DNA of 57,078 nt from Bdellovibrionota bacterium (GCA_036559405.1 DATBTF010000051.1:1-57078); one strand, 5' to 3'. Numbered from the stretch's first letter, positions 7,160 to 45,245 are shown. Translations and numbers: made by a program. Notes: generated by a model not told the origin, from the sequence alone.

Positions 7160-7172
7160 GGGCGATGTCAAC
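7160..7172 (-). repeat. degenerate copy of the TGACATCGCTCC motif
   Basis: The minus strand reads GTTGACATCGCCC. The TGA stop of 7168..7452 lies inside TTGACA. It is 37 nt upstream of ATG 7134. Confidence 0.5.
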
Positions 7173-7452
7173 GCGAGCGGGTTCTCCGCAGCCGATCCGG
7201 CGCGTTCATCTCCACCACCTCGACCATCGCCGCTTCCTCCGCCGGCAGGCTGGGATCTTTTATGGCACTATCCCCGCTCACCACTACCTGGAAGCTGGCT
7301 GGATCGTAGGAAACCCCGTCGAGATCGTAGTTGCCCAGATTGTCCGGAATCATGCGGCGGGTATCGCGGTGGGCGCGGACTTCGGGCAAGACCCGGTATC
7401 GCACAAAGGCCGCCAGCGAAAGACCGACAAACAAGCTTATCCTGCGAACCAT
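7168..7452 (-). CDS. small N-terminally anchored hypothetical protein
   Basis: C-terminal 94 codons of track ORF 7168..8115, starting MVRRISLFVGLSLAAFV. The rest of that ORF is antisense to the UDG gene. Confidence 0.35.
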   Translation of the reverse strand: MVRRISLFVGLSLAAFVRYRVLPEVRAHRDTRRMIPDNLGNYDLDGVSYDPASFQVVVSGDSAIKDPSLPAEEAAMVEVVEMNAPDRLRRTRSR

Positions 7453-7503
7453 GAGCGCCTCCCATTCCGATCCTTGCAAGCCCGCGGCCATGCTCCATGA
7501 CAG

Positions 7504-8205
7504 TTGCAAATTCGCCGCACAGCCGCGAGAGTAGCCACGTTGAAGCCGCTGGAAAAAATCCAGGAGAAGATCGTGAACTGCGAGCTCTGCCCTCGCCTGC
7601 GAAAGCATTGCGCCTCCATCGCCAGGGAAAAGCGCCATGCCTTCCGGAACGAGACCTACTGGGGCAGGCCGGTTCCCAGCTTCGGCGACCCCGAGGCTCG
7701 GCTGCTGATCGTTGGCCTTGCCCCGGCCGCCCACGGCGCCAACCGTACCGGCCGGATGTTCACGGGCGATCGCTCGGGCGACTGGCTGTACCGCGCTCTT
7801 CACAAGGCCGGCTTCGCGAGCCAGGCAAGCTCCCTCGGCCTGGACGACGGCCTGAAACTGCGCGATGCCTGGATCACTGCCACCGCCCACTGCGCGCCTC
7901 CCGACAACAAACCCAGCCCGGTGGAGATCGCCCGCTGCTCGTCCTACCTGAAAAGCGAGCTCACCTCGATGAAACGGGTCAAGGTGGTCCTGGTGCTGGG
8001 AGGCATCGCCCTGAACGGCATCTGGAAGTTCGTGGGCCACGGCGCCCGCCCGAAATTCGGCCATGGAGCGGAGCGCACACTGGAAAGCGGGAAGACGCTT
8101 CTGATGAGCTACCATCCTAGCCAGCAGAACACCTTCACCGGACGGCTCACCGAGCCCATGTTCGACTCGATCTTCGCGAGGGCGAACGAGCTAATCAGGA
8201 AATAG
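7504..8205 (+). CDS. uracil-DNA glycosylase, family 4/5 (UdgB-like)
   Basis: CELCPRL Fe-S Cys pattern, motif A GLAPAAHGANRTGRMFTGD (family-5-like, no catalytic polar residue), HPSQQN motif B. Start uncertain (TTG 7504 or TTG 7540). Confidence 0.8.
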   Translation: MQIRRTAARVATLKPLEKIQEKIVNCELCPRLRKHCASIAREKRHAFRNETYWGRPVPSFGDPEARLLIVGLAPAAHGANRTGRMFTGDRSGDWLYRALHKAGFASQASSLGLDDGLKLRDAWITATAHCAPPDNKPSPVEIARCSSYLKSELTSMKRVKVVLVLGGIALNGIWKFVGHGARPKFGHGAERTLESGKTLLMSYHPSQQNTFTGRLTEPMFDSIFARANELIRK

Positions 8206-8227
8206 ACGGAGAATAAAACGAAAATTT

Positions 8228-8614
8228 CTAATGGCAGTACCTCTGCGCCACCTGGAGAAGTTTGGCGATGTCGATGGGCTTGGTGAGCACTTCACTTACC
8301 TGGCAGCCGGCGGCGCCTTTTTCTCCTGCGGCGGTGATCAGCACCACCGGGGTTTTCGCCACGGAACGGTTTTCGGCCTGAGCCATCGCCCGCAGGAACC
8401 CGCGGCCGTCCATCACCGGCATCATCAGATCGAGCAGCACCAGGCAAGGTTTGACTTTGGCAAGGGTTTCCAAGCCAGTGCTGCCGTTCTCCGCCATTGC
8501 CACCGAATACCCTTCGCTCACGAACAGCTCCTCGAGCGCTTCACGGATGCTGTCGTCGTCCTCAATCACTAGAATTTGTTTATGGCCCTCGTCCTGGCCG
8601 AGATGGTTTTCCAA
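8228..8614 (-). CDS. single-domain response regulator (CheY-like receiver)
   Basis: ILVIEDDD, LVLLDLMMPVMDG (phospho-Asp) and LTKP. No output domain. Confidence 0.85.
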   Translation of the reverse strand: MENHLGQDEGHKQILVIEDDDSIREALEELFVSEGYSVAMAENGSTGLETLAKVKPCLVLLDLMMPVMDGRGFLRAMAQAENRSVAKTPVVLITAAGEKGAAGCQVSEVLTKPIDIAKLLQVAQRYCH

Positions 8615-8865
8615 GATGCTCCCCTTTGGACCCCGGTTTGTACCTTAGCCAGGGATTTTTGCACAATGCCGGACGAGCGGAAGCGAAGCCTGCTTGGTGC
8701 GGCAAGATTCCCGCTTCCGCCGGGATACAGCACTCGGGGGTTTGACAGTGCCCAAAGGCTAGACAGTTGCCCAGAAAATCTCCAGTTTTGAGGAAAAAGC
8801 ACCTAGTAAAATCAATAACTTGGAGTGAAGGCATCGGTCTTGCTGCAAAAGTGGAAGGGGGAAAG

Positions 8866-10020
8866 ATGCGTCAACCGCTGCCAGCGCCAATCCGCATGGG
8901 TCTTAAGGGCCTGGCTGCTGCATTGCTGCTGGCGCCCCTGAGCGCCCAATCCCGCAGCTACGATTACAACAGCACCGAGATCAACCAGCAGAGCGCCGCG
9001 GGCTACGCCTCGAACAACTTCTGGAACGGCTCGGGCGACAGCAAGGACGAGGGCGTGCGCAACGGCATGCGTGCCATGAACCGTCTGGCATCTCTCGATA
9101 TCGGCGGCGCCATCCATTACGGCTACAAAGGTTACGGCAACTACACAAATTCCCAGAAGATGGACGACCTCGACGCCCGCGTCTGGAAGAACAAAGGCAA
9201 GATGGACTCGATCAAGGACGGCATGATCGGCGGCGCGGCCAGCAGCGGCGCCGGCACCGGCAGCGAATCCTACTCGGCCATCGGGCCGGAACGCGAAGGC
9301 GCCAAGCTGCCCAATACAGGAAGCAGCAAAACGGTGAACGGCGAAAGCGTGGTCACCAGCAAAAAGTGGTCGGCCATGGACCGCGGATTCCTTTACCGGG
9401 GCGAGACCGCGGAAGTGGCGGCGGAGTTCGAGAGAAAATCGGGCATGAGCCGCGAAGAGTTCTTCAACCAGCTGGCGGACACGGCGGATGCCAGCCTGAA
9501 CTACGACGATCCGAACCTGATGAACAAGCTCGAGGCCCGCTACGCCAAATTCGTCAACGCCATTCCGAACAAGGAATACCGCGCTAACATCCAGAAGGCC
9601 TATTCGATGTTTTCCTTCGCCAAAAAGCAGGAAGCCCTCCAGGAAGTGGCGGCCTTCTATTACAAGATGCGCGGTGACACTGGCCCTTCGGAGCCGGCCC
9701 AGCCGCAGGTGGCAAAGAGCGAAGTAAAAGCCGATCTGCCCTCCGCTCCGGCCGCCGTGGCCAGCGAGCGCTCGCCTTCTTCGGCGGATAACTCCAACCT
9801 CGCCCTTGCGCACGAGGCCGCCGTAAGGATGAACGAGAACAGCAAATTGACGAAAGAGCAGATGGGCATGTACCTCGGTCTCGAGGGCAGCCATGGCGAC
9901 GAGCTGAAGGACATCATGATCGCCGCCGATACCGATTCGATTTTCCGCAAAGTCTCTAAACGTTACCGTAAGCTTACGCCGGCTCTGCTCGGCAAAGCGA
10001 TTATGTTAGACTCAAGGTGA
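8866..10020 (+). CDS. secreted hypothetical protein
   Basis: ATG 8866 after GGAAGGGGGAAAG. Signal peptide MRQPLPAPIRMGLKGLAAALLLAPLSAQS. No recognisable domain. Confidence 0.65.
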   Translation: MRQPLPAPIRMGLKGLAAALLLAPLSAQSRSYDYNSTEINQQSAAGYASNNFWNGSGDSKDEGVRNGMRAMNRLASLDIGGAIHYGYKGYGNYTNSQKMDDLDARVWKNKGKMDSIKDGMIGGAASSGAGTGSESYSAIGPEREGAKLPNTGSSKTVNGESVVTSKKWSAMDRGFLYRGETAEVAAEFERKSGMSREEFFNQLADTADASLNYDDPNLMNKLEARYAKFVNAIPNKEYRANIQKAYSMFSFAKKQEALQEVAAFYYKMRGDTGPSEPAQPQVAKSEVKADLPSAPAAVASERSPSSADNSNLALAHEAAVRMNENSKLTKEQMGMYLGLEGSHGDELKDIMIAADTDSIFRKVSKRYRKLTPALLGKAIMLDSR

Positions 10021-10050
10021 ACTTGGGAAGAAGGGGAAAGGGTGGGAACA

Positions 10051-10317: not shown

Positions 10318-10345
10318 TAAGAATTTTTAAGAAAGGGTGGGGAAC

Positions 10346-10639
10346 ATGAAGAACCTACTTAAGTTGACATCGCTGGCGGGATTCTGCTTCGCGATGATCG
10401 TATTCGGTGCCTGCGGCGGCGGTGGTGGCGGCGGCGAAGGCAAATTCAAGCAGGCCCAGGAAAAGGCCAAAGAGAAGGAAGATGAGCTGAAAGGGAAGAT
10501 CGATGAGCTGAAGCAAAAGCTGCAAGAGGAAGAGAAAAAGAACTCGACCTCGACGGCTACTACGACAGCGGTCGTTACTTCGGCCACGACGGTAACGTCG
10601 ATTTCGTCTTCCGTAGTGACCACAACCGCGGTGCGCTAG
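10346..10639 (+). CDS. small lipoprotein, paralogue of 10051..10317, with coiled-coil segment and Thr/Ser/Val tail
   Basis: Near-identical signal peptide/lipobox MKNLLKLTSLAGFCFAMIVFGAC plus G7. Followed by KEKEDELKGKIDELKQKLQEEEKK and STATTTAVVTSATTVTSISSSVVTTTAV. Confidence 0.7.
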   Translation: MKNLLKLTSLAGFCFAMIVFGACGGGGGGGEGKFKQAQEKAKEKEDELKGKIDELKQKLQEEEKKNSTSTATTTAVVTSATTVTSISSSVVTTTAVR

Positions 10640-10646
10640 TCCGCGG

Positions 10647-12750: not shown

Positions 12751-13403
12751 AGGGCGCAGAGGTCATGAACGAGGCCGTGCACTCCGGTGAAAACATCCTT
12801 CAGCGGAGCCTCGTCGTACATATAGGCAGGCGTGGAAACGATCTTGTTTTTCCGGTCGGTATGCCACTGCGAAGCACTTTTCACCACATGGCGGTGACCG
12901 AGCTTCTCGATCTCGCCCGAGGCCTCGCTCTTTTCCCCCACCGTCAGCTCGATCGCGGATCCGGGCAATGCCATCGCCACCGCCGCCGGAGCGATGCACA
13001 CGGCACCGATCGGCTTGCCCGCGTCCCGGAAGCCTTCGATCACCCGCTTCACTTCCGGCTGTACCTTGCCGCCGCTGCCTTGTGTGGCGAAGCTGCAAAG
13101 ATTTTTGGCGACACCAAAGCCGCCGGGGATCACGAGAAAATCAAAGTCCTTCGCCTGCAGTTCGGAGAGCGGGCGAACCGCGCCCCGGGCGATCCGGGCC
13201 GCTTCCACCAGCTGGTTGCGCTTCTCTCCGGGCTCCGCCTGCCCGGTAAGGCAGTTCACCACGTCGCTTTGCGGCTGGCTCAATGCGAAGCAGTGGGCTT
13301 CGACGTTTTCCACCGAAAGCGCCCAAAGCACGGCCACACTTTCACGGATCTCGCTTCCGTCTTTGAATCCCGAACCACAAAGAATGACTGCCGCCCTTTT
13401 CAT
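12747..13403 (-). CDS. elbB: ElbB-type DJ-1/PfpI family protein (glyoxalase ElbB)
   Basis: MKRAAVILCGSGFKDGSEIRESV..., FDFLVIPGGFG, PIGAVCIAP. ATGA overlaps on both sides. Confidence 0.8.
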   Translation of the reverse strand: MKRAAVILCGSGFKDGSEIRESVAVLWALSVENVEAHCFALSQPQSDVVNCLTGQAEPGEKRNQLVEAARIARGAVRPLSELQAKDFDFLVIPGGFGVAKNLCSFATQGSGGKVQPEVKRVIEGFRDAGKPIGAVCIAPAAVAMALPGSAIELTVGEKSEASGEIEKLGHRHVVKSASQWHTDRKNKIVSTPAYMYDEAPLKDVFTGVHGLVHDLCAL

Positions 13404-14197
13404 TTTTTCTCCTTCGCATTTTCCTCGGGATCGCAATCGCCGAGCTTGGAACCATCCGGGTCTTTCCAGCCCTTGCCCTTGGCCCAGCAGTCGCCGGTGG
13501 ACTGGGATTTTTTCGGAACCGGTTTGGCATCCCCTTCCGAGATGGGCCCAGGCACAGCAACGCCGTAGCGCACCGCAAGAGCGCCCTTATCTCCCTCGCT
13601 CTTGGATACACTGATCTTTCCGTCCGCCGTCATCTCCGCGTGCTCCCCGGCGGATACCTCCCGGTAGGTGCCGGGAGCGAAGTCAATCGACTTGCCCCAC
13701 CAGACCGTTCCCTCAAGAACATCGATGGCCGAGTGCTTGTCGTCGCCCTCCAGGAGATATTCCGTGCCCCGGATGCCCATCGCGGCGTTTTTGGTGTGGA
13801 TCTTCAGCCGCATCCCGTTTTTCCCGTCGGTGCTCTTGGGCACTTCACCCCAGAGAGCGCCGGCGAAAACGTTGAGCACCCAAAAAGAATAGCTTTCTTT
13901 CTCCGGCTTGCGCGCTTCGAGCTTCAGCTTGGTGTTGGGCGCGATTTTCCACTTGGATCCGTCATAGGACTCCACACCCACGATCTGGCCCGAAGCGGTA
14001 ATGATCTCGTCCCCCACGAAAAGCAGGGTGCCTGCGCCGGCATATTCCTCGCGGGCGCCGACGGCACGAACCACCTTGACCTCTTTAGGCCCATTGACCT
14101 CCGAGATCCGCAGACGGTCGCTCGTTTCCGGAGCGGCCGCGGCGGGGAGAAAACCAGAAACAAGGAAGAACGCGAGAAAAATGAAAGGAATTTTCAT
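13400..14197 (-). CDS. secreted FecR-domain protein
   Basis: Signal peptide MKIPFIFLAFFLVSGFLPAAAAP. FecR-like beta-rich core (GDEIITASGQIVGVESYDGSKWKIAPNTKLKLE). Confidence 0.65.
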   Translation of the reverse strand: MKIPFIFLAFFLVSGFLPAAAAPETSDRLRISEVNGPKEVKVVRAVGAREEYAGAGTLLFVGDEIITASGQIVGVESYDGSKWKIAPNTKLKLEARKPEKESYSFWVLNVFAGALWGEVPKSTDGKNGMRLKIHTKNAAMGIRGTEYLLEGDDKHSAIDVLEGTVWWGKSIDFAPGTYREVSAGEHAEMTADGKISVSKSEGDKGALAVRYGVAVPGPISEGDAKPVPKKSQSTGDCWAKGKGWKDPDGSKLGDCDPEENAKEKK

Positions 14198-14234
14198 ACG
14201 GCTATACTAGAATCTTCATGGGGGAATCTCAAGA

Positions 14235-14822
14235 ATGATGGAAAAATATGAGATCCGATTGGGCGAGAGCCTGAGCACGGCCTGGAAGATTTTCTGCAAA
14301 GGGCCGGAGGTTTTCATAACGCTCACCTTCGGACTGGCCTGTGTCTCAGTTCTGTTCTCGAAACTCGGCTCCTGGCTGACCCTGATCCCGAGCTGCCTGG
14401 GCCCCGCCGCCTTCTACCTGGCGGCCGAAGACGGAAACCACAAAGAACGAATCTCTTTCGAATCCGTGAAGCCCATTGTGAACCTTTTTCCCCAGCTCCT
14501 GGCGCTCACAGTCGTGAAGTCCATTGCGATCTTGCTCGGATTCATCCTCTTCGTGATTCCTGGAATTTACCTTACGGTGATTCTCTGCTTCGCCGAACTT
14601 TTCGTGGTTCTCGAGGGAAAACCCTTTCTCGAAGCCATGAAAGCCAGCAAAGAGCTGGTGGAGCGTAACTTCTGGGGCGTGCTCGGGCTCTGCATTTTCT
14701 CCTTCGGCCTTTTGTTTTCGGGCGTACTCCTGGTCTTCCTTGGCTTACTGGTGACCGCGCCCCTCGCCACCCTTCTGTTTTACGTTGTGTTCCGCAGGGT
14801 AAACCTTCACGTGGTTTCCTGA
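14235..14822 (+). CDS. integral membrane hypothetical protein
   Basis: Four or five hydrophobic segments; no motif recognised. Confidence 0.6.
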   Translation: MMEKYEIRLGESLSTAWKIFCKGPEVFITLTFGLACVSVLFSKLGSWLTLIPSCLGPAAFYLAAEDGNHKERISFESVKPIVNLFPQLLALTVVKSIAILLGFILFVIPGIYLTVILCFAELFVVLEGKPFLEAMKASKELVERNFWGVLGLCIFSFGLLFSGVLLVFLGLLVTAPLATLLFYVVFRRVNLHVVS

Positions 14823-17614: not shown

Positions 17615-18492
17615 GCGCTCTCCTTGGGCAGGAGGGCGAGAGCGTCGAGCGCACGGTGCCGGCCGCTGACCCGCTGGCGCTCCCCTTTGTTCATCATCAC
17701 GAGGGTGTCGGCGCGTTTCACCAGAGCCCCGGTGACCTTGCTGATCTTATTTTCCATCTCGGGACCGGGCTCACGAAGCTCCAGCCAGACTTCCTCGCGC
17801 GGCTCGGCATTGCGAACGGGGCGGGCCATCCACTCACCGACCCTTGCGGAAACGGGCCAGTGCACGCGCGTTGCGTCCTTCCAGCGCTCGGTGGGCACCA
17901 CCTCACCGGTAATCACCTCCGCCTCCCCGCGCACCGATGGGGTTTCCTGCATGCTGCGCTTTCCGGAATCTGCGGGACGCGGCCAGACGATCCGGTTGCC
18001 CTTTTGCGGAATCAGCATGATCTTGCGGGCGAAACCGAAAGGAAAGCTCGTGCCCGCAAGCAGGCCTTCCCAGTGATGCCGACCGCGGGAAGGGACCACC
18101 TGGCGCGAGCGCACCCGAACCCGGGCACGGGCCGGTAGAATCAGCAGGAAGGCCGTGAATTCGCGGCGGCGTCCGAGATATTCCCCGAGCTCAATGCAGT
18201 AGAGCGGCAGCCGCCCGCGATTCTCGACGATGAAAACGTCCATACCCTGCAGGCCCGCATGCAGATTCCCGCATTCCCGCTCCACATGAATATTGGAAAG
18301 GGTGATTTCCGAGAATACGCCTGAGACCAGAAGCGAGCTCAATAGAAGGCTTTCGAGAAGATAGATCACGTTGTTACCGGAATAGATCGCGGCGGTGCCG
18401 AGGGCGATCGTGAAAGCGAGATACCATCGCCCCCCGATAGAAAGCTCGAGCAGCCTGCGTTTACTTCGGAGTGTCCACCCGTTCGAGCGCAT
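17611..18492 (-). CDS. DUF58-family protein
   Basis: Two N-terminal TM segments plus the DUF58 position between MoxR and TGase. ATGA overlap with the TGase gene. Confidence 0.75.
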   Translation of the reverse strand: MRSNGWTLRSKRRLLELSIGGRWYLAFTIALGTAAIYSGNNVIYLLESLLLSSLLVSGVFSEITLSNIHVERECGNLHAGLQGMDVFIVENRGRLPLYCIELGEYLGRRREFTAFLLILPARARVRVRSRQVVPSRGRHHWEGLLAGTSFPFGFARKIMLIPQKGNRIVWPRPADSGKRSMQETPSVRGEAEVITGEVVPTERWKDATRVHWPVSARVGEWMARPVRNAEPREEVWLELREPGPEMENKISKVTGALVKRADTLVMMNKGERQRVSGRHRALDALALLPKESA

Positions 18493-19438
18493 GGCGAACG
18501 ATCTCCTTGCGTTGCAGGGACGACATTTCCCCCGACCTGAAGCAGAGCCGGTGGGCCAGCACGGGGCCGGCGAGAGCGGAAATGTCAGCTGGAAGCACGA
18601 AGTCGCGGCCGTCGAGGTAGGCGCGGGCCTTGGCGCAGTCGATCAGCTGCAGCACCGAACGAACTGAAGCGGCGTGCACCACGTCGTCTTCACGGCGAAG
18701 GGTGCGGGAGATCGCCTGCACAAAGCGCAGGATGCTTTCCTCCACGAAAACGCGGCCGGCCTCTTCGCGGCAGAGCAAAAGCTCGGACGGACTGATTCCG
18801 GAAGATCCGGATGTTTGCTTCCCCGTGGCTTCAGGCGCCAGCCCGGCGTGGCGGCGGTATACGGCGAGCTCAGCCTCCTCTCCGGGGAGGTTAAGCGAAA
18901 CCTGCATCATGAAGCGGTCTAGCTGGCTCTCGGCGAGGGGATATACGCCATGGAACTCCTGGGGGTTCTGGGTGGCGATCACGAAAAACGGTTTGGGAAG
19001 CTCGTGGGACACTCCGTCGACAGTAACGCGTCCCTCGGCCATGGCCTCGAGGAGAGCCGCCTGGGTTTTCGCACTGGTACGGTTGAGCTCGTCTGCCAGC
19101 ACCACGTGGGCGAAGATGGGACCTGCGCGAAACTCGAAGTCGGAGGCGCCTGGCTTGAGGCGCAGCGTGCCCACGACGTCGCTGGGCAGGAGATCGCTGG
19201 TCATCTGGATGCGATGGAAAGTCCCCTGGAAGAGCCCGGCCATGCCATGGGCGAGCGAAGTCTTGCCGACTCCGGGAGGTCCCTCGAGGAGCAGATGCCC
19301 GCCCGCCACAAGCGTGGTCAGGGCGCCTTCCACCACTTCGTCCTGGCCCATGATTTTTTGGCGAAGAGTCTGGCCCAGGGCCCGGATTTTTTCCCGGCCC
19401 CCCGAAACGGCTTTCTTTGCTTCTGCGGCTGAAAACAT
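18461..19438 (-). CDS. moxR: MoxR-family AAA+ ATPase
   Basis: Walker A LLLEGPPGVGKT, Walker B VLADELNR, ATQNP and LDRF motifs. Confidence 0.9.
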   Translation of the reverse strand: MFSAAEAKKAVSGGREKIRALGQTLRQKIMGQDEVVEGALTTLVAGGHLLLEGPPGVGKTSLAHGMAGLFQGTFHRIQMTSDLLPSDVVGTLRLKPGASDFEFRAGPIFAHVVLADELNRTSAKTQAALLEAMAEGRVTVDGVSHELPKPFFVIATQNPQEFHGVYPLAESQLDRFMMQVSLNLPGEEAELAVYRRHAGLAPEATGKQTSGSSGISPSELLLCREEAGRVFVEESILRFVQAISRTLRREDDVVHAASVRSVLQLIDCAKARAYLDGRDFVLPADISALAGPVLAHRLCFRSGEMSSLQRKEIVRHALERVDTPK

Positions 19439-19569
19439 TTCTGCCCTCGGAAACGTATCGGTGAAATAGCGTTGGGATTGAAGGGCCTTAGGCGTCTCCG
19501 ACTTAAATAATTCGAATTTAAAACCGGCGAATTTCCTGGCTGGAAATGGCCAGGGATACCTGCCAGCGG

Positions 19570-21237
19570 CTAGGGAAAAAGGGAGAGGCTGGCCTTGCGG
19601 TATTGGCCATCCGTTTCGGGAAATACGCTAACGTGTGAGCGGCACCAGCGGCGGGCGATTTCAAGAGAGCGGGCGCTCTTATCGTGAGCAGCCCGCTCCA
19701 GAAGCAGAGATGCCGCGCAAGCGCCGGCGAGCGCGTAGGCGAAACGGCGGGCTGAAGCCTGCGCGAAGTCGGGTCCCTCCTGCGCCGCGATTCCGAGAAA
19801 CGATTCCAGCTCCGCGCAGGTGGCTTTCACGGCGGTCACCTCGTCGGTAAGCTGGGCGGCCTTCACTGACGCGAGGCGCTTCTGGATTCCATCGAGAAAC
19901 GGCTCGAAGGCTCCTTCCTTTTCAATCGCGCGCAGCACATCGAGCGAAAGCACGTTGGTGGTGCCCTCCCAAATGGGAAACACCTGGGCGTTCCGCAAGA
20001 GCACAGGCAAGCCGCTGTCTTCGACATACCCGGCCCCGCCGAAGGCCTCCACCACTTCGCTCGTGATCGCCATGCAGCTCTTGGCTGTGTAAAGCTTGGC
20101 GATGGGAGTGAGCATACGGAGCATGGCGCTTTCTTCCGGCGACGACTTGCCCAGCTCGTCCCGGCCCAGAAGCTCGGCGAGATGGAAGGTGAGAAGGAAG
20201 TTCCCTTCGAACTCGACCACGAGATCGGCCATGGTGTCGGCATGCAGCGGCTGCTCCGCGAGCAGTTTGCCGAAAACGGAGCGCCTGCGGCCATAGTCGG
20301 AGATCAGGGCCAGGGCCCGCCTGGTGGCACCGAGCGCGCAAACGGAGTTGTACATGCGCGTGATGTTAAAGAGCGAGGCGATTTTTTTGACCCCATTCCC
20401 CTCTCCGCCTACGAGCGTGGCGGGCGCGCCTTTCAGCATCAGCTCCGCCGTGGGCATGGCCCGTGTTCCCAATTTGTCCTTCAGGCGGAGGATCTCGATG
20501 TTCTGCAAGCGGCCTTGCTCGTCCCTCACGGGAATGTAAAACAGGCTGAGTCCCTTGGAACCTTCGGGATGCCCTTCGATGCGGGCGAGCGCCATGGCCA
20601 TCTGCGAGGTGGTGGCCGAGGTGAACCACTTCACCCCATGCAGCTCGTAGCCGCCCTTTCCTTTTTTTGCCACGGTGGAGGTTCCCGAGACGTCCGAGCC
20701 GCCTGTCTTTTCCGTCATCCACTGGCCGCTAGTCCAAAAATCGCCTGGATCGCGGGAGATCAGTTTCTTAAAGGGACCGCGTTTGAGCTCTTCGTCCCCA
20801 TAGAGCTCGATCGCCCGCGCAGCTCCGTCGCTCATCGCCAGCGGGCAGCTCACGAAGGCGGAGGAGGGATGAAACAGGTAGAGCTTGGCGAACTGTATGA
20901 GACGGGAATGGACACCATACTTGCGCTCGTAGCCCGTAGCCACAATGCCCTCCTCGGCCGCTGCCCGGGAAATGTGGGTCCAGCCGGGGCTCATGGTGAT
21001 GTTATCGATCCGCCGGCCCCAGGGATCGAAGGGTGTGTGGACTGGCTCCACGGTTTCCGCATTCTCGCTCGCGGCTAGCAGGTCAGTGACAACGCGCTCG
21101 CCCATCCGTTTCAGCTCGGGCTGGGCCAGGGAAAAGGTGTCTCCCGTTAGCTTCTGCCGCAGCAGCTGTGGAAGCAGGGGGTCGGCCTCGTATTGATTGG
21201 TAAGCCGTGGGCCTTCCTGGAAAAATTCGTTTTTCAT
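19570..21237 (-). CDS. acyl-CoA dehydrogenase (AidB-like long form)
   Basis: 555 aa; MTEKTGGSDV, WFTSA, FPIWEGTTNV ACAD motifs. Confidence 0.85.
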   Translation of the reverse strand: MKNEFFQEGPRLTNQYEADPLLPQLLRQKLTGDTFSLAQPELKRMGERVVTDLLAASENAETVEPVHTPFDPWGRRIDNITMSPGWTHISRAAAEEGIVATGYERKYGVHSRLIQFAKLYLFHPSSAFVSCPLAMSDGAARAIELYGDEELKRGPFKKLISRDPGDFWTSGQWMTEKTGGSDVSGTSTVAKKGKGGYELHGVKWFTSATTSQMAMALARIEGHPEGSKGLSLFYIPVRDEQGRLQNIEILRLKDKLGTRAMPTAELMLKGAPATLVGGEGNGVKKIASLFNITRMYNSVCALGATRRALALISDYGRRRSVFGKLLAEQPLHADTMADLVVEFEGNFLLTFHLAELLGRDELGKSSPEESAMLRMLTPIAKLYTAKSCMAITSEVVEAFGGAGYVEDSGLPVLLRNAQVFPIWEGTTNVLSLDVLRAIEKEGAFEPFLDGIQKRLASVKAAQLTDEVTAVKATCAELESFLGIAAQEGPDFAQASARRFAYALAGACAASLLLERAAHDKSARSLEIARRWCRSHVSVFPETDGQYRKASLSLFP

Positions 21238-21462
21238 GAGGCGATTTTACTGCGGAATTCCAATCCTTCTGGAAAGAATTCTCTCGCTCCGCCTCTTTCC
21301 CCGGGGAGTCGGTAAAATTTCGCTATAGTATAGCGCGCCGCAGTGGTATAGGATCTATAGGTATTGATTCGTGTGGATCGAAACTTCTGCACTCGTTAAG
21401 GGCGCAGTAGGTAAAAGTAACTGGATACCGTTCGCAATGAGCTTGATGAGACCTGTAGTTCG

Positions 21463-23767: not shown

Positions 23768-23790
23768 ATTTAGATTATTTGGTCTCCAGG

Positions 23791-23803
23791 GGAGCGATGT
23801 CAA
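23791..23803 (-). repeat. exact copy of the TGACATCGCTCC motif
   Basis: The minus strand reads TTGACATCGCTCC. The FAH gene TGA stop lies inside TTGACA. It is 36 nt upstream of OMP ATG 23767. Confidence 0.8.
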
Positions 23804-27752: not shown

Positions 27753-28514
27753 CTAGCCGAGAAAGCGCAGCGTTTCTCCCATCACGCGCTCCCATTCAGA
27801 CTTGCCAATGGAAGCCGAGTCGATCACGAGATGATGGTATTTCCGCCTCCGCTCGCAGCCGTTCGCGCTGAGCTCGCGGAAACTCCAGTTCCGCTTTTCC
27901 TCGGAAAGCTTCTTTACCGCCGGCATATTCACCAGCTCGTCCTGCGGATCGCCCCAGATCAGGGCAGGAGCGATGTCTTCGCGGCCCTCGCCCTGCTTCC
28001 AGCGGTGAAAAAAATCGTCCAGGGCCAGCACGCAACGCAAACCGGAAACCTCATTGGCGGCGTAGCCGTCGGGGATCCAGGAACGGAATTGCAGATCGGG
28101 TATCAGGCGCGCTAGCTTGATCCCGATCGGATACCAGGCGCGAGTAGCGAGGGCGGGCGCGAAGTAAACCCGTTTTGCGAATGGCAGCTCGGCGCTCAGC
28201 ACCTGAAAGACAAGTGCGCTGAAAGAATAGGCCACCAGATAAAGAGGAACTCCGAGTTTCTTCGCCTTCCCTTGCGCGAGCGAGTGGATGCGCGAGGCGT
28301 CCTCTTGCCAATCATGGGCGCGGATCTGCAGGTGCCGGTCACCATCTCCGCTATGTCCGGTGAACGCAGCGCGGAGCGCGCCGAAGCCGGCTTTCGCGAA
28401 CTTCGCCGCCATCTCGTCCATTCGTTCCGGATGGAGATTGAGGCCGTGCGTGACCACGACCACACCCCTGGCCTTTCCTTGGGCCGGAAACCACTGCGCA
28501 GACTCATTTAACAT
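27753..28514 (-). CDS. alpha/beta hydrolase (lysophospholipase-like)
   Basis: VVVVTHGLNLH oxyanion region, nucleophile elbow VAYSFSA, about 250 aa. Confidence 0.7.
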   Translation of the reverse strand: MLNESAQWFPAQGKARGVVVVTHGLNLHPERMDEMAAKFAKAGFGALRAAFTGHSGDGDRHLQIRAHDWQEDASRIHSLAQGKAKKLGVPLYLVAYSFSALVFQVLSAELPFAKRVYFAPALATRAWYPIGIKLARLIPDLQFRSWIPDGYAANEVSGLRCVLALDDFFHRWKQGEGREDIAPALIWGDPQDELVNMPAVKKLSEEKRNWSFRELSANGCERRRKYHHLVIDSASIGKSEWERVMGETLRFLG

Positions 28515-28592
28515 GGTGCATAAATATCATTTAAGCCAATGAATTGCCGAAATAAAAAGATTTTCAATCCCCTATTAGGCCCTTGCCAATTC

Positions 28593-36690: not shown

Positions 36691-36763
36691 CCGCCTGGAA
36701 TTCTTTCGGCTTTTTCTTCGCCTTCCTGTTCAGAAACGCCGAGCCCCCGACGATAAGGTGAAT

Positions 36764-37447
36764 ATGAAGCTCTTCACCCCTATCTTCGCCCTATTCGCCA
36801 TTATCTTTTTCTCCACCAGCGACGCCCAGGCCTGCAAATGCTCCAGCGGCTGCGGGATGATCACCCAAGGTCTGAGCAGCGACGTGCTCAAGCTCGTGCA
36901 GGAAGGCAATCGAACGGGCCATTCGCCCCTCTCCTGTATCCGCACCCAGGCCTGCCAGGACCGCCTGCGCCACTGCTACGAACGCTGCGGGCAATACGGC
37001 CGTGCCGCCAGAAAATCCAAACATAGCGACGGCACAGCCTGCGACTGGATGCCCGACCACGGCAGAGCCCTCAAGCAGATCGAGTCGAGAAACAATCTTC
37101 GGAATATCCGCCGGCTCGTCCACTCCAAAGGCCAGGGCAGCGGCCTCCACGAATACACTATTAGATACACCAAGGCTCCCCAGGGCGGTGGCCAACCGGC
37201 CCAGCCCGTGCAGCCCTCCCAACCCGCACAGCCCGTCCAACCTGCTGGCGGCGGTGATGTCGGAGGCGGAGATGCAGGCGGCGGTGATAAACCCCGTCAG
37301 CCCGCCGGAAACAGCGGCGGACACGAACAGCTCGCCAATGGAAAGTATAAATGCGCCCGCGGGATGAAAAGCATCTGCGGAAGCACAATCGGCACTCGTT
37401 GGTGCAAGAGCTGGGTAGCATCCGGCCACACGCCCGGTTGCTACTGA
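36764..37447 (+). CDS. secreted Cys-rich hypothetical protein with PAQPVQP repeats
   Basis: AAGGTG SD. Signal peptide MKLFTPIFALFAIIFFSTSDAQA. Many Cys residues; QPAQPVQPSQPAQPVQP then GGGD repeats. Confidence 0.6.
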   Translation: MKLFTPIFALFAIIFFSTSDAQACKCSSGCGMITQGLSSDVLKLVQEGNRTGHSPLSCIRTQACQDRLRHCYERCGQYGRAARKSKHSDGTACDWMPDHGRALKQIESRNNLRNIRRLVHSKGQGSGLHEYTIRYTKAPQGGGQPAQPVQPSQPAQPVQPAGGGDVGGGDAGGGDKPRQPAGNSGGHEQLANGKYKCARGMKSICGSTIGTRWCKSWVASGHTPGCY

Positions 37448-37464
37448 TCTAGGTTTTTGGGGGG

Positions 37465-38175
37465 ATGATGAAGATTCTGTTTTTGTGCGCACTGAACATA
37501 CTGTGGGTCACCGCCGCGCAGGGTGGTTGTATTTCGATGAAAGACCTCGATAAGGAATCCGTCGACTGCAACGATAACGGAAATTTTGTCGATGCCGGGA
37601 TCCAGTGCTTTTTGGGCTTCGAGAACCTCGTGAAGAAGCAAGCCGGGGTGACCGCCAAAGGCATGAAACGCTCCAATGATAAATTCGTGAACGGCGACCG
37701 CAACAGCCAGACGAGCGGGCAAGAAGGCATGGTGTCCAATATGAACCTTTCCGTGGCCGCGCTCGACGCGATGATCGCCGCCGGCAAGGCAGCCCGGAAA
37801 GACATCGACAGCTATGCGAAGAACATCTTCTTCCCCGAGGAGTGGGACGCTCCCGAAGAGATGATCGGGAACGGGCTGGACTATCTCAACAGCAGCGCCT
37901 GTTACGCCGAGCCCCGGGACATTCTGAATGACATGGTCCAGCGCACGGATCAGTACATTGCGGATCTCGAAATGGCCAGGCAGGTGGCCACCGCCATGAA
38001 AAAAACGAGCACGGGCCGTGACGCCAATCTGGATCAGATGAACGGGATGCGTCTCCCGGCGGCTGCGACAAATGGCCCCGGAGCCAAGGCCGTCAAGAAG
38101 GGCAAGAAGCCCAAGAACGGTAAGTCCACGATTACAGGCGTGGAAGAAGACAAGAAGAAGCGCACCGAGCAGTAA
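37465..38175 (+). CDS. secreted hypothetical protein with Lys-rich tail
   Basis: Signal peptide MMKILFLCALNILWVTAAQG. C-terminal KAVKKGKKPKNGK...EEDKKKR. Confidence 0.6.
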   Translation: MMKILFLCALNILWVTAAQGGCISMKDLDKESVDCNDNGNFVDAGIQCFLGFENLVKKQAGVTAKGMKRSNDKFVNGDRNSQTSGQEGMVSNMNLSVAALDAMIAAGKAARKDIDSYAKNIFFPEEWDAPEEMIGNGLDYLNSSACYAEPRDILNDMVQRTDQYIADLEMARQVATAMKKTSTGRDANLDQMNGMRLPAAATNGPGAKAVKKGKKPKNGKSTITGVEEDKKKRTEQ

Positions 38176-38705: not shown

Positions 38706-38739
38706 AAGGGCGCTCCGATGGGGGCGCCTTTTTATTTTG
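38706..38739 (+). terminator. rho-independent terminator after bcp
   Basis: AAGGGCGC...GCGCCTT stem followed by TTTTATTTT. Confidence 0.7.
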
Positions 38740-38745
38740 TCTTGG

Positions 38746-38760
38746 TTGACATCGCTCCCC
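38746..38760 (+). repeat. exact copy of the TGACATCGCTCC motif
   Basis: TTGACATCGCTCCCC, upstream of the HUH transposase gene. Confidence 0.8.
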
Positions 38761-38855
38761 CATCCTGGAGTGGCGTACCCTCGCGTCCCTGGTGTATATG
38801 GAGCGCTTACGTACAGCGTAGGTCGCTTTCGCTACTCCTGAGCCTCTAACCCATT

Positions 38856-38869
38856 TTGACATCGCTCCC
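38856..38869 (+). repeat. exact copy of the TGACATCGCTCC motif
   Basis: TTGACATCGCTCCC, 57 nt upstream of ATG 38913. Confidence 0.8.
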
Positions 38870-38912: not shown

Positions 38913-39464
38913 ATGCGCTATCATCGAGCCTCACCGCCCAATCTCGAAGCCTACCGTCGCGACAAAGGCTGTTTCGGCGGCGACCTTTTGCGAGGCAATC
39001 CCAAGGGCCGAAGGCCTTTCTCCCATCACTCGGCTTTACATTTGGTGGTTCGCTCAACTTTGGCAAAAGGACCGCGATCCATGCTCCTACCAAGGCACCG
39101 CAAGCAGATTCTGGCGATCGTTCGCAAACAGGCCCGGACCTTTGAGGTCAAGGTCTACCGCTATGCCAACAGCGGAAACCATTTGCATTTCCTGGTGCGA
39201 CCACCCAGGACTCGCGCTCAATTCGTCGGATTCACGAAAGCAATTACAGGCCTGATTGCGCGCACTGTGACTCAAGCCAGGCGTGGGAAAAAAGTGGGAT
39301 TGCGATTCTGGGATAAGCGTCCCTTTTCCCGGATTATCCGCTGGGGCCGCGCTTTTCAGTGCTGCGCTCGCTATGTCACTCGCAATACTCTGGAAGCAAT
39401 GGGCTTCGAAGAAGCGGATTTCATCGATTATGAACTGAAAAGCTGGCGCTCAAAAGGTTCATAA
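38913..39464 (+). CDS. IS200/IS605-type Y1 HUH transposase-like protein (RAYT-like)
   Basis: ALHLVVRS, VYRYANSGNHLHFLVRPP (HUH = H-L-H), FWDKRPFSRII, ARYVTRNTLEA (catalytic Tyr context like YI..NPV). The start is uncertain (ATG 38913; the track TTG is at 38889). Confidence 0.55.
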   Translation: MRYHRASPPNLEAYRRDKGCFGGDLLRGNPKGRRPFSHHSALHLVVRSTLAKGPRSMLLPRHRKQILAIVRKQARTFEVKVYRYANSGNHLHFLVRPPRTRAQFVGFTKAITGLIARTVTQARRGKKVGLRFWDKRPFSRIIRWGRAFQCCARYVTRNTLEAMGFEEADFIDYELKSWRSKGS

Positions 39465-40097: not shown

Positions 40098-40112
40098 GAG
40101 AGCAATGTCAAA
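40098..40112 (-). repeat. degenerate copy of the motif
   Basis: The minus strand reads TTTGACATTGCTCTC (two mismatches). Confidence 0.5.
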
Positions 40113-40125
40113 GCTGCTCACGATA

Positions 40126-40139
40126 GGAGCGATGTCAAA
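40126..40139 (-). repeat. exact copy of the TGACATCGCTCC motif
   Basis: The minus strand reads TTTGACATCGCTCC. Confidence 0.8.
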
Positions 40140-40162
40140 CGGCCCTCGTTTTTCAACCTGGA

Positions 40163-40175
40163 GGAGCGATGTCAT
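40163..40175 (-). repeat. exact copy of the TGACATCGCTCC motif
   Basis: The minus strand reads ATGACATCGCTCC. Confidence 0.8.
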
Positions 40176-40224
40176 CCGCCGGAGCCCGTAAAGAAATGCC
40201 CAGGGAAATCCGATAAGTGAGGGC

Positions 40225-40824
40225 ATGATTCTCGTTCTCCACATCCTGGCCCTCGCCCTGCCCGCGCAGGCGGCGGAGCTGCCAAGGGCGTCCAGCACGC
40301 CCCTCTGCGCGCGGCTGCAGGCCGAATCGGTGCAGATCCAGTCCGGCGCGCCGAAGGCCTGCGACGAGTCCAAGGAGACGCATGCCCGCTTCCTGGCCGC
40401 TTTCGCCGAGGTGAACGAGGCCTGCAAGCGCCTCGAGGCTCAGGCGAACAATCCCGCGCCCACGCTTTTTGGCGCCAGCGACCGCCAGAAACAAATAGAA
40501 ATTATGGACCTCAAGCAGAAGCACATCACAGAGCGCGAAGCCCTTCTCCAGCGCTTCGGCCACGAGCTGCTGCGCACCCCTCTCGATAACGACGATCCCC
40601 TCCGCCCGCCTCCCGCCACGCCCCTGAGCGACGCCTGCGCCGAAGAGATGCAGGCTTATGCGCGCTTCCGAAACGCAGCCCTGCAGGGAATCGCGAACTA
40701 CTTCCAGGTGATCGAGAAATCCGACGACGCTCTTCTCCTGCAAGCCCAGGAAAGTCCTCAGGAAAAACCGCTGCAGAACCGCGTGCCCGCGGACGATAGA
40801 GCTACTGGAGCGGGGACTAAATAA
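40225..40824 (+). CDS. secreted hypothetical protein
   Basis: Signal peptide MILVLHILALALPAQA; helical, four Cys; no domain recognised. Confidence 0.5.
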   Translation: MILVLHILALALPAQAAELPRASSTPLCARLQAESVQIQSGAPKACDESKETHARFLAAFAEVNEACKRLEAQANNPAPTLFGASDRQKQIEIMDLKQKHITEREALLQRFGHELLRTPLDNDDPLRPPPATPLSDACAEEMQAYARFRNAALQGIANYFQVIEKSDDALLLQAQESPQEKPLQNRVPADDRATGAGTK

Positions 40825-41161: not shown

Positions 41162-41920
41162 ATGAAGTACGACAACCCGAAGCCCGGATCCTCTAGAGAC
41201 AGCCTCATGCTCGAATACTTTTCGCTCGTGAAAATCGTGGCGAAAAAGATGGCCACCCGCCTGCCCGCCAGCGTGGACTACGACGACCTCGTAAGTGCCG
41301 GCCTGATCGGCCTGATGCAGGCACTGGAGCGATTCAAGCCGGAAAAGGGCTTTAAGTTTAAAACCTATGCCGAGTTCCGCATCCGCGGCGCGATGATCGA
41401 TGAGCTGCGCACCCAGGATTGGTGCCCGAAAGGCATGCGCCAGAAGGCCAAGCAGTTCGAACGCATCTGTGAAAAGCTCCGCCAGAAGAAAGGCCGCAAG
41501 GCGACCGACAAGGAGCTCTGCCAGGCCCTGCACATTTCGAAAACCAAATACGAGCAGCTCGTGCGTGACGTGAACACGCTCGAACAGATGAACCTGGCTT
41601 CGTATGTGCGCCTGAGCAATGCAGAAGATCGCACCCAAACCACGATCGAGCTCGTGCCTGATACTCATGATCACGTGGACCCGTTCGAAGAGGCCAGCCG
41701 CCATAACGTTCGCGACAAGATCGAAGCGGCCATGCGCCACCTTCCGGAAGCGGAGCGCACCGTGTTAAGTCTCTACTACTTCGAGGACATGAACCTCAAG
41801 GAGATCGGCAAGCATCTGAACCTGTCGGAAAGCCGGGTTTGCCAGCTCCACTCGAAGGCGATCGCTCAGCTCAAAGAGAACCTGGCTGAAGAGCATCTCG
41901 AAGCCCAGCTCGCCGCCTAG
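41162..41920 (+). CDS. fliA: FliA/WhiG-family RNA polymerase sigma factor (sigma28)
   Basis: Region 2 LIGLMQALERFKPEKGFKFKTYAEFRIRGAMIDELR; region 4.2 NLKEIGKHLNLSESRVCQLHSKAIAQLK. Confidence 0.85.
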   Translation: MKYDNPKPGSSRDSLMLEYFSLVKIVAKKMATRLPASVDYDDLVSAGLIGLMQALERFKPEKGFKFKTYAEFRIRGAMIDELRTQDWCPKGMRQKAKQFERICEKLRQKKGRKATDKELCQALHISKTKYEQLVRDVNTLEQMNLASYVRLSNAEDRTQTTIELVPDTHDHVDPFEEASRHNVRDKIEAAMRHLPEAERTVLSLYYFEDMNLKEIGKHLNLSESRVCQLHSKAIAQLKENLAEEHLEAQLAA

Positions 41921-44001: not shown

Positions 44002-44332
44002 GTATGGAGGCTGCAGCACCTGCAAAAAGGCGCTGAGGTTTCTCGACGGGAAAAAGATCGCCTACGAAAAAGTCGACATCACCGAGGTTCCGCCCTCGAT
44101 CTTCGAGCTCAAGCGCATGCTCGGGCACGTGGGTAACATCGGCAAACTCTTCAACACCTCGGGCCTGGTCTACAAAGAGCTCGGATTGTCGAAGCTACTT
44201 CCCGGCATGAGCGAACAGGAGAGCCTGACGTTGCTGGCAAAGAACGGCCGGCTCGTGAAGCGGCCCTTTGTCTTGGGCGATGGCTGGGGCGCGGTTGGCT
44301 TCAAAGAAGAAGAATGGAAGAAACGGCTCTGA
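43979..44332 (+). CDS. ArsC/Spx/YffB-family thioredoxin-fold protein
   Basis: KVYEYGGCSTCKKALRFLDGKKIAYEKVDI and LVKRPFV. Confidence 0.75.
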   Translation: MKKLKVYEYGGCSTCKKALRFLDGKKIAYEKVDITEVPPSIFELKRMLGHVGNIGKLFNTSGLVYKELGLSKLLPGMSEQESLTLLAKNGRLVKRPFVLGDGWGAVGFKEEEWKKRL

Positions 44333-44374
44333 GGTGGTAAGAAGCCGCCACCTTCAACCAGAAAGGAAACATCC

Positions 44375-44818
44375 ATGAAAAATCTATATTTAGTCGTTCT
44401 TGGTCTCCTGGCTACGGCTCCCGCTTTCGCCGCCACCTCTTACCCCATGCGCTGCCGTGGTGGTGCGCCGAGCACTTTCGGTTTCCAGCTGTATTCCACT
44501 GGAGAAACCCTGCTCAATGTGCGCTTCAAGCCGGGAACCAAACCGGCTGGCCAGGGCCTGAATCCCGGCGAATGCTCGTGGCTCGACCGCGGAATGCGCG
44601 CCGGTGAGCCCGCCCAGCTCTGCCAGAGCGTGAAGGACATGTTCCTCTCTACCTCCAGTACCTCGGTTCCCGGGATGGAAGGAATTCAGCTCCTGGTGAT
44701 GACACAATGGTCGAAGTCGGCCCCCTGGCTGGAGAAGATCCGCAATCCTGCGGCCTACATCGACGTCTACGTCTACAACGATGGCCGCAGCTGCATGGTC
44801 GTCACCAAAACGCTGTAA
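44375..44818 (+). CDS. secreted hypothetical protein
   Basis: Signal peptide MKNLYLVVLGLLATAPAFA; four Cys; no domain recognised. Confidence 0.6.
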   Translation: MKNLYLVVLGLLATAPAFAATSYPMRCRGGAPSTFGFQLYSTGETLLNVRFKPGTKPAGQGLNPGECSWLDRGMRAGEPAQLCQSVKDMFLSTSSTSVPGMEGIQLLVMTQWSKSAPWLEKIRNPAAYIDVYVYNDGRSCMVVTKTL

Positions 44819-44844
44819 GCGCGTCTCAGCTTTAAAAGAGATTT

Positions 44845-44875
44845 GGGCCCGCACCCGCGGGCCCTTTCTTTTTTT
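44845..44875 (+). terminator. rho-independent terminator
   Basis: GGGCCCGC-accc-GCGGGCCC followed by TTTCTTTTTTT. Confidence 0.85.
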
Positions 44876-44967
44876 CATAATCTAAGCATCTAATTTTCCT
44901 TACGAATTCGATCCTTGCCTGGCCCTTAAGTATTGATACACTGCGTCACCCTGATGCCGGAGGCCGC

Positions 44968-45186
44968 ATGGCTCCTAAGATGACGACGCTTCACACTTCA
45001 CCCCTTCTCAAGGCCGCCACTGCCGGCTTGCAGATCCTCTGCGAGTACAAAGTCACGCCTAAAGCCAGGCGGCTAAAGGCCCGCCTGGTGGCCGTGCGTG
45101 GCGGCACTCCCGTCTGCGAAACCAATCTGCCCGGCACAATCCAGGAAATGCTCGCGGACTACCGTTTGAGCGAGCCTAAACACTAG
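44968..45186 (+). CDS. small hypothetical protein (72 aa)
   Basis: ATG 4 nt after GGAGG. Candidate promoter TTGCCT-16-TACACT upstream. No homology recognised. Confidence 0.4.
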   Translation: MAPKMTTLHTSPLLKAATAGLQILCEYKVTPKARRLKARLVAVRGGTPVCETNLPGTIQEMLADYRLSEPKH

Positions 45187-45231
45187 AACAGACTGCGCTT
45201 TCCGCTCCCACACTCCAGCGTGTGGGCCTCA

Positions 45232-45245
45232 ATGACATCGCTCCC
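45232..45245 (+). repeat. exact copy of the TGACATCGCTCC motif
   Basis: ATGACATCGCTCCC, 31 nt upstream of ATG 45263. Confidence 0.8.

Follow-up and report, generated by a model that had tools for sequence, protein, structure and literature searches.

The Y1 locus and its repeated element

A stretch of 57,078 nucleotides (nt) of DNA from a Bdellovibrionota bacterium (GCA_036559405.1, DATBTF010000051.1:1-57078; hereafter the window, meaning the whole of the analysed stretch) carries, at 38913..39464 on the (+) strand, a gene for a 183-amino-acid (aa) protein of the HUH/Y1 (RAYT-like) type, in which the HUH motif reads NHLH and the catalytic tyrosine lies in RYVTRN. Upstream of this gene, and at several other intergenic sites, lies a short repeated element, and this element travels with the Y1 gene, being found directly upstream of it in seven lineages and absent from control loci. 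The comparisons described below suggest, with moderate confidence, that the element is the cognate site of the Y1 protein and that it doubles as a promoter box.

The core of the element is the 12-mer TGACATCGCTCC, of which six exact copies were found when both strands of the window were scanned, at 23791-23802(-), 38747-38758(+), 38857-38868(+), 40126-40137(-), 40163-40174(-) and 45233-45244(+). These copies had been noticed in an earlier sequence-only reading, which placed three of them 1 nt off by including the preceding base, and they are real: the 12-mer appeared in none of 100 dinucleotide-preserving shuffles of the window, and the uniform expectation for one 12-mer (2L/4^12) is 0.0068. 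Apart from GGC-type low-complexity coding repeats, it is the sole over-represented 12-mer of the window. Two degenerate copies which the same reading had located near 7160 and 40098 were recovered as intergenic matches with two mismatches each, TGACATCGCCCG at 7159-7170(-) and TGACATTGCTCT at 40099-40110(-), while a further copy proposed at 55685 (TTGTGACGCTCCC) gives no alignment without an indel and was dropped. Three near-copies were rejected as coincidental: one at 13674, which is in-gene and encodes a DFAPG protein motif conserved in 14 homologues, one at 27967, which is in-gene and shows no indel relative to the orthologue at the related locus L041, and the 11-mer at 10364, which falls in the signal-peptide codons of a lipoprotein gene and had been listed in that reading.

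Conservation ends sharply at about 14 nt, as (T/a)TGACATCGCTCC(c/t), and the flanking bases are unrelated between copies, the full element being 13-14 nt long, TTGACATCGCTCC(C), with the 12-mer as its core. In a consensus built from 18 instances, TGAC and GC are invariant, the remaining positions agree in 14-17 of the 18, and the flanks are random; likewise, alignments of motif arrays between lineages recovered only a 14-15-nt core and no longer homology. No second conserved block was found at any fixed distance from the motif, either around the window copies or in the 18-instance alignment, and its absence rules out a sigma54, extracytoplasmic function (ECF) or bipartite promoter. The element has no match in Rfam, a literature search for the literal motif returned only eukaryotic primer matches, and when genome contigs were scanned for a two-copy motif pattern, the only matches were tandem repeats of other phyla, unrelated to the element. 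When the antisense strand, GGAGCGATG, is read as a Shine-Dalgarno (SD) sequence plus ATG, the resulting open reading frames (ORFs) are 6-111 aa long and mutually unrelated, which rules it out as the start of a set of small ORFs.

As had been claimed, all eight copies are intergenic and each points toward the next gene; the orientation statistic is weak, with only four informative sites (the divergent FKBP region being uninformative) and hence p = 1/16. Two of the exact copies precede the Y1 gene in direct orientation, both as TTGACATCGCTCCC: a distal one at 38746..38759 (+), which starts 11 nt past the terminator hairpin of the AhpC gene, and a proximal one at 38856..38869 (+), whose 12-mer ends 44 nt before the ATG. 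On the other side, 640-710 nt downstream of the Y1 gene and with an FKBP gene enclosed, a three-copy array at 40099..40174 (-) holds one degenerate and two exact copies at spacings of 27 and 37 nt, inverted with respect to the copies upstream of Y1. This array lies upstream of the FKBP gene (ATG 40008); for the divergent gene 40225 it is antisense and immediately precedes that gene's sigma28 promoter.

Association of the element with the Y1 gene across lineages

The element was found directly upstream of the Y1 gene, in the same orientation, in 7/7 lineages (the window and six more, with protein identities of 45-100%), although the gene neighbours of Y1 differ in almost every one of them. In L044/L045, where the Y1 protein is 62% identical, four copies lie within 215 nt upstream, two of them direct with one mismatch and two inverted and exact. 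In L048/L049 (58% identity) there are two upstream copies, TGACATCGCGCC and an exact proximal copy, and single forms precede the gene in L047 (54%; exact TTGACATCGCTCCC), L046 (51%; TTGACTTCGCTAC), L050 (46%; TTGACATCGCTTAC) and L051 (45%; again TTGACATCGCTTAC). Copies are confined to the upstream side of Y1 in L046, L047, L048, L050 and L051. The Y1-bearing loci amount to 66.8 kb; their seven copies with no more than one mismatch all fall within 270 nt upstream of the Y1 start, and no copy occurs outside the Y1 upstream region in flanks of 6-20 kb. Related loci that lack a Y1 gene, 88.5 kb in total, hold zero copies. The tie of the motif to the RAYT-like gene is strongly supported by these comparisons.

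Since the element is near-invariant across proteins that are only 45-62% identical, it is under strong constraint, and the exactness of the window copies is therefore not evidence for recent copying. In the related locus L039, AhpC is directly followed by FKBP with no Y1 gene between them, and the region upstream of FKBP is free of the motif, as is the intergenic region orthologous to the 40099..40174 array; given this adjacency, the Y1 gene and its motif copies are an insertion in the lineage of the window. The extra copies of the window are also lineage-specific, in that orthologous regions in L035-L041 are without them.

Several observations were made beside these loci. The region upstream of Y1 homologues is seemingly hard to assemble: five independent assemblies (L002, L048, L049, L050 and the contig of P0078) start 46-180 nt upstream of the Y1 homologue, and the L050 contig begins inside a heptamer tandem repeat, (CCGTTAT/CTGTTAT)n. 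CCWGG follows the motif at no more than about 10 nt in 4/18 instances, which is above chance and not general, as CCTGGAG after copies 23791 and 38747 and as CCAGGTT after copy 40163 and L044 9790 (window 23782-23790, 38763-38769 and 40153-40160; L044 9806-9812). At L044 19782-20150, a unit CGACAGCACGCACTGC... recurs at 51- or 102-nt spacing, with at least five repeats in or beside a 252-aa gene. The 3' end of window copy 38747 together with the next bases (GCTCCCCCATC, 38754-38764) could base-pair over 11 nt, at 91%, with the AhpC terminator hairpin, in its loop and right arm (GATGGGGGCGC, 38717-38727), and may allow an alternative pairing. Between TonB and AhpC the window has a pair of neighbouring genes whose products, of 229 and 236 aa, are Cys-rich and secreted (36758-38175); the syntenic region of L039 is without them. 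Logan contigs of three sequencing runs are identical to the window over 38.3-40.7 kb and are uninformative on strain polymorphism.

Orthologous promoters and the proposed secretome regulon

In the sequence-only reading, the copies had been proposed to mark a promoter or regulator site of an envelope/secretome regulon. In this explanation a host transcription factor or alternative sigma factor would bind the site and the Y1 gene would be just one member of its regulon; it draws on the fact that all copies point at a downstream gene, that the products of four of these five genes have signal peptides, and that TTGACA is present in the motif. For the 498-aa secreted protein (45263-46759), 34 homologues with identities of 38-61% were found. 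Four of their loci were fetched, in which gene order is largely conserved, and none holds the 12-mer within 14-21 kb; over four to five relatives, the orthologues are without the motif and have a conserved sigma28 promoter in its place. In L035, L036 and L039 the gene is preceded by CTAAAT-N16-CCGATA, followed after 7-8 nt by the ATG and free of the motif, while L037 retains a less good match, CCGAAA, at 7 nt from its ATG. The window promoter, CTCAAT-N16-CCGATA-N7-ATG at 45228..45265 (+), is in the same register as those of the relatives (CTCAAT vs CTAAAT, both with N16), and the exact copy 45233-45244 fills its 16-nt spacer. Because the length of the spacer is unchanged, with no indel, the copy would have arisen by base replacement under selection and not by insertion, which fits a selected binding site.

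The expectation that syntenic promoters would keep such a site was not borne out at these genes, as orthologues of the supposed targets lack the motif, whereas the Y1 homologues keep it in differing neighbourhoods, which makes the Y1 gene its one constant partner. The host-factor explanation is further opposed by the motif-free 88.5 kb of related DNA without Y1 and by the lack of a conserved second promoter element. The bias toward secreted proteins is weak: signal peptides are found in 4/4 of the non-Y1 downstream genes (p ~0.03 on four genes), against 24/57 window genes (~42%) whose products have a hydrophobic segment at the N-terminus by a crude scan. A conserved secretome regulon is not supported by these sequences, and a host factor of this kind is considered very unlikely.

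The promoters at which some of these copies lie are of a type already known in the group. In B. bacteriovorus, attack-phase promoters of FliA (sigma28) have the form TTAAG-N16-CCGATA (Karunker et al. 2013, PMC3627812), and the promoters at window 45228-45255 and of gene 40225 are of this type and conserved in relatives; the 12-mer is no part of the sigma28 consensus and at 45233 merely sits in the spacer. The promoter of gene 40225, which encodes a 199-aa secreted protein, is canonical and reads TAAA-N17-CCGATA-N9-ATG at 40189..40227 (+); copy 40163-40174 ends 14 nt upstream of it, and the L039 orthologue of this gene has GCCGATAA-N8-ATG. Promoters of the sigma28 (FliA) type, (C)TAAA(T)-N16/17-CCGATA, thus stand 7-9 nt before the ATGs of secreted-protein genes at window 45228-45265 and 40189-40227 and, in relatives, at L035 7880-7921, L036 9965-10003 and L039 9965-10003, and their conserved nearness to the ATG implies that these genes may give leaderless FliA-dependent mRNAs. 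The fliA gene itself lies at 41162-41920. A candidate sigma28 promoter with a leader was seen at window 18461-19470 (-), where TCAA-N16-CCGATA stands 17 nt upstream of the ATG of a 325-aa gene that has an SD. Upstream of the 45228 promoter, about 410 nt (44819-45227) are apparently non-coding, and relatives have nitroreductase and chromate-transporter (or other) genes in this position, so that the region is variable, and the promoter with the motif bounds it on the right.

Promoter geometry and predicted leaderless transcripts

The motif opens with TTGACA, the -35 consensus of sigma70. Between the 12-mer and the ATG lie 22 nt in L050 and L051, 23 nt at copy 23791 and in L047 and L046 (in both of the latter counted to Met7), and 24 nt at copy 7159 and in L048. 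In all seven cases a -10-like hexamer with A at position 2 (AATAAT, TAAGCT, TACTTT, TAACTT, CAAAAC, TAAACA or TAAATT) is separated from TTGACA by 16-18 nt and from the ATG by 6-9 nt, and there is no SD.

The clearest example is the putative promoter of an outer membrane protein (OMP) gene at 23774..23803 (-), where the exact copy 23791-23802 gives TTGACA-N18-AATAAT-N6-ATG (OMP ATG 23767, no SD), an 11/12 match in a sigma70 consensus scan. A second is the putative promoter of a 156-aa secreted protein at 7142..7171 (-), where the degenerate copy 7159-7170 gives TTGACA-N18-TAAGCT-N7-ATG (ATG 7134, no SD). At both sites the preceding gene, which at 23791 is an FAH gene, ends within the motif, with TGA as its stop codon. 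A metagenome scan with the FAH protein found three loci, and in L041 a different gene follows FAH, which places copy 23791 at a synteny break. Copy 7159 falls under the strict sigma70 threshold, and it shares a looser fit (TAnnnT or A-rich) with L046, L047, L048, L050 and L051. In three window cases the next ATG comes 18, 23 or 24 nt after the motif, again with no SD.

In five lineages for the Y1 gene, and in the window for two further genes, a role for TTGACA as the -35 box of a leaderless transcript is well supported by this geometry, though unproven. The earlier idea of a promoter element is thereby plausible for 23791 and 7159, and it does not extend to a dedicated secretome promoter. Leaderless layouts are common in the clade, with the sigma28 CCGATA 7-8 nt before the ATG in five lineages and TTGCTG-N17-TAGTTA-N6-ATG in L041, and in the window itself a FecR-domain gene (13400-14197 (-)) is preceded by TTGAGA-N17-TAGTAT-N6-ATG at 14198-14235. 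SD-less genes with a -10-like hexamer 6 nt before the ATG were noted in the window at 14198-14235(-), 27753-28540(-) and 19570-21260(-), and leaderless transcription seems to be widespread in this genome. Gene callers may choose wrong starts in such genes; for the 498-aa protein, an entry in one collection begins only at the second ATG and is 487 aa long.

The same spacing could be read at the level of RNA. Here UGACAUCGCUCC, at -36..-24 from the AUG, would be transcribed in a 5' leader or intercistronic region and would act on SD-less translation, perhaps by binding a protein or an RNA where the ribosome footprint ends. In favour of such an element, the motif is always on the sense strand and keeps a fixed distance of 22-24 nt to the AUG in the seven SD-less cases, and at 23791 and 7159 it would be transcribed from the upstream gene. 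It has no conserved structure and no Rfam match, however, and neither the inverted copies of L044 nor the distant FKBP copies fit; as the -35/-10/ATG geometry explains the spacing more simply, an RNA element is regarded as most improbable.

The Y1 family and its relation to known systems

The Y1 protein matches Pfam Y1_Tnp weakly (24.7 bits), and scores 28.7 bits against NCBIfam REP_Tyr_transpos (NF047646; cut-off 80), a family that just 19 of 51 members match. Against NCBIfam IS200 (NF033573) it scores 21.4 bits, below the cut-off, with weak matches in 46 of the 51. The residues H90 and H92 (NHLH), Y154 and N158 are invariant across 51 homologues. An AlphaFold2 (AF2) model of the protein (pLDDT 84) was matched by Foldseek at probability 1.00 to the TnpA proteins of IS608, ISDra2 and IS200 and to E. 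coli TnpA-REP (4er8). There are 72 close homologues, many of which carry the JGI name RayT, and a profile search returned 590 representative clusters at E<=1e-30; each homologue cluster is found on 1-2 contigs, and none was found on plasmids or viral contigs. Family members are 183-200 aa long, have no extra domain, and share the signatures NHLH, FWD and Y-x3-N[T/I/V], which fit 0/12 of the TnpA-Y1 subclasses tabulated by Quentin et al. The family looks like an apparently undescribed TnpA-Y1 subclass, set apart by these signatures.

One of the nearest described arrangements is the REPtron of E. coli TnpA-REP (PDB 4ER8; PMC8266576, PMC5581495), which likewise consists of a single-copy HUH/Y1 gene with its own short repeat that is also present at other intergenic sites. 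The predicted Y1 fold superposes on 4er8 (TMq 0.52, root mean square deviation 4.0), and the inverted pairs of L044 are able to form a hairpin like that of a REPIN. The differences lie in the repeat, in its placement and in the protein. Repetitive extragenic palindromes (REPs) that are recognised by TnpA-REP are defined by a GTAG head (PMC8266576), and their unit is an imperfect palindrome of about 20-40 nt that reaches high copy number in extragenic DNA, whereas the window element, with eight copies in 57 kb, is 13-14 nt long, non-palindromic, without such a head (GT[AG]G is absent from TTGACATCGCTCCC) and with a consensus -35 box; in most lineages it is upstream-only, direct and at fixed spacing to the ATG. 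The Y1 family has Y-x3-N[T/I/V] and FWD where RAYTs have Y-x3-NP and WE/WQ (Quentin et al. 2018), and the score of the window protein against the RAYT family is 28.7 vs 80. REP copies typically flank their single-copy gene on both sides in inverted orientation; here the flanking pattern varies between lineages, with two direct copies upstream and three inverted copies downstream in the window, two direct and two inverted, all upstream, in L044, and upstream-only copies in five lineages. A classical REP is ruled out by the non-palindromic unit and the missing GTAG. No inverted repeat is common to the window copies, and single-stranded DNA (ssDNA) folds around them show no extra stability (z between -0.8 and +1.3 vs shuffles), whereas the L044 array forms a long ssDNA hairpin (z = -5.5). 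An isolated GCGTAGGT that is common to the window and L048 spacers is at chance level.

Another example of a Y1 gene accompanied by repeats other than REPs, which lack hairpins, may be single, dimeric or clustered and make up moderately abundant families, is the TIRtron or TIRYT (Di Nocera et al. 2013, PMC3733652; subclass 2.1 of Quentin et al. 2018, PMC6006769), and the window, with its copies direct before the gene and inverted beyond it, resembles such flanking by terminal inverted repeats (TIRs). Known TIRs are, however, long and carry GGGGWSAS, whereas the window repeat is 13-14 nt and GGGAGCGA does not match GGGGWSAS; subclass 2.1 proteins are ~238 aa with a C-terminal HTH, whereas members of the Y1 family are ~183-200 aa without an HTH; and the window is the only locus flanked by inverted copies, which there enclose the FKBP gene as well. 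The insertion sequences (IS) of the IS200/IS605 family share the same catalytic fold, and the TnpA proteins of IS608 and ISDra2 gave the best Foldseek E-values. Here, in contrast, there are no subterminal hairpins, no identical multiple copies were seen, Y-x3-Q is absent, profile scores are below cut-off, and no right end is present in L044 and L047, where the Y1 stop codon is 1 nt from or overlaps the next gene. An IS200/IS605 identity is ruled out by the lack of hairpins and of a right end and by a tyrosine motif that is not Y-x3-Q.

The sequence-only reading had also offered REP-like elements linked to the RAYT-like gene. The link is borne out by the motif upstream of every Y1 homologue fetched, while the likeness to REPs is contradicted by the lack of a palindrome and of GTAG. 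A purely mobile form of this idea, in which the element is a non-autonomous REP/REPIN- or TIR-like repeat copied by Y1, with no regulatory role and with its promoter geometry owed to chance of landing, would account for the tie to the RAYT-like gene, for the inverted arrays on both sides of Y1 (38747+/38857+ vs 40099-/40126-/40163-), for the REPIN-like hairpin of L044, and for copies that are lineage-specific and at synteny breaks; RAYT-flanking repeats of low to moderate copy number are known (PMC5581495, PMC3733652). It does not predict upstream-only, direct copies at 22-24 nt from the ATG in five lineages, as random landing would not place them there, nor the unaltered length of the promoter spacer at 45233. 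The short, non-palindromic unit without GTAG, its partnerless solo copies and a near-invariance across lineages that reflects constraint further oppose it, and a solely mobile repeat is thought unlikely.

A proposed cognate site that doubles as a promoter box

The reading favoured here, that the element is both the cognate site of the Y1 protein and a promoter box, draws its second half from the geometry described above and its first half from what that geometry leaves unexplained. RNA polymerase gives no known reason to conserve the seven further bases TCGCTCC, and the proximal Y1 promoter of L044 keeps its geometry (TTGACT-N30-ATG; TTGACT...N23-ATG) and has lost the extension, yet the locus keeps four good copies further upstream. 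The element would therefore have a role beyond that of a -35 box, and something besides sigma70 appears to read it. As the gene and the site stay together through relocations, recognition by Y1 is most simply proposed, in which case TCGCTCC would be contacted by the Y1 protein itself and the site could serve both as promoter and operator of the Y1 gene, in autoregulation, and as the recognition sequence of an HUH enzyme.

Transposase promoters that lie within element ends, and outward-facing -35 boxes that form hybrid promoters, are classical features of IS biology. The proposed arrangement is similar in that the transposase gene would be transcribed from a promoter whose -35 box is part of the recognition sequence, and in that copies at the right distance from a -10-like hexamer would activate neighbours; it differs in that a solo 13-mer, and not a whole IS end, is found at other genes, and in that the transcripts would be leaderless.

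In the lineage of the window the element may have multiplied, to give two direct copies before Y1, three inverted copies beyond FKBP and three solo copies. The solo copies 23791 and 7159, fused to the upstream stop codon, would be -35 donors for the leaderless OMP and 156-aa genes; a protein bound to copy 45233 in the sigma28 spacer would occlude RNA polymerase; and the three copies between FKBP and the divergent sigma28 promoter could be operator or promoter modules. Such copies may have spread by the action of Y1, as REPs and TIRs do, or by in-situ selection of binding sites. Copy 23791, at its synteny break, and the inverted arrays look more like the behaviour of a mobile repeat, which differs from the selection suggested for copy 45233.

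Several points weigh against the proposed double role. Only one of the eight window copies passes a strict sigma70 scan, which also tells against the envelope regulon proposed earlier; the sigma70 geometry is not seen at 38747, 38857, 40099-40174 or 45233, and the scan accepted no member of the group of five near Y1 and FKBP. The Y1 gene of the window is itself without a convincing -10, as there is no -10-like hexamer at the right distance from the proximal copy 38857, and the Met7 starts used for L047 and L046 were inferred in this analysis. The window sequence is present in four soil-metagenome DNA runs and in no RNA run. To our knowledge, every characterised Y1 enzyme recognises hairpin DNA; the known enzymes recognise ssDNA hairpins, whereas the window copies are without one.

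A stronger version, which is doubtful as a whole, would take Y1 to be a domesticated transposase that acts as a sequence-specific regulator, with TTGACATCGCTCC as the operator over the -35 of its own leaderless promoter and with the extra copies as a young regulon of selected operators, one of which evolved inside a sigma28 spacer. If true, a protein of the RAYT type would thereby gain a function in the cell, and the element would provide a non-palindromic, promoter-bearing counterpart of the REP for an undescribed TnpA-Y1 subclass (NHLH / FWD / Y-x3-N[TIV]).

Implications for the family and for annotation

For annotation, the genes described here that have no SD are probably leaderless, with the first ATG as their start. 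A repeated 'promoter motif' that is specific to one genome is not to be taken for a regulon until orthologous promoters have been checked.

With respect to the family, the Y1 gene and its motif appear to be a variant of the systems that pair a Y1 gene with a repeat, structurally unlike REPs. A large uncharacterised Y1 clade, with hundreds of 50%-identity clusters in metagenomes, would thus be tied to a 13-nt non-palindromic site, and because this site is nearly invariant across deep divergence and has a consensus -35 at fixed distance from a leaderless start, the two make a testable protein-site pair. The pair bears on the role that domesticated transposases of the RAYT type have in their hosts, and it may be a case in which a transposase-linked repeat wires new promoters or operators into a genome.

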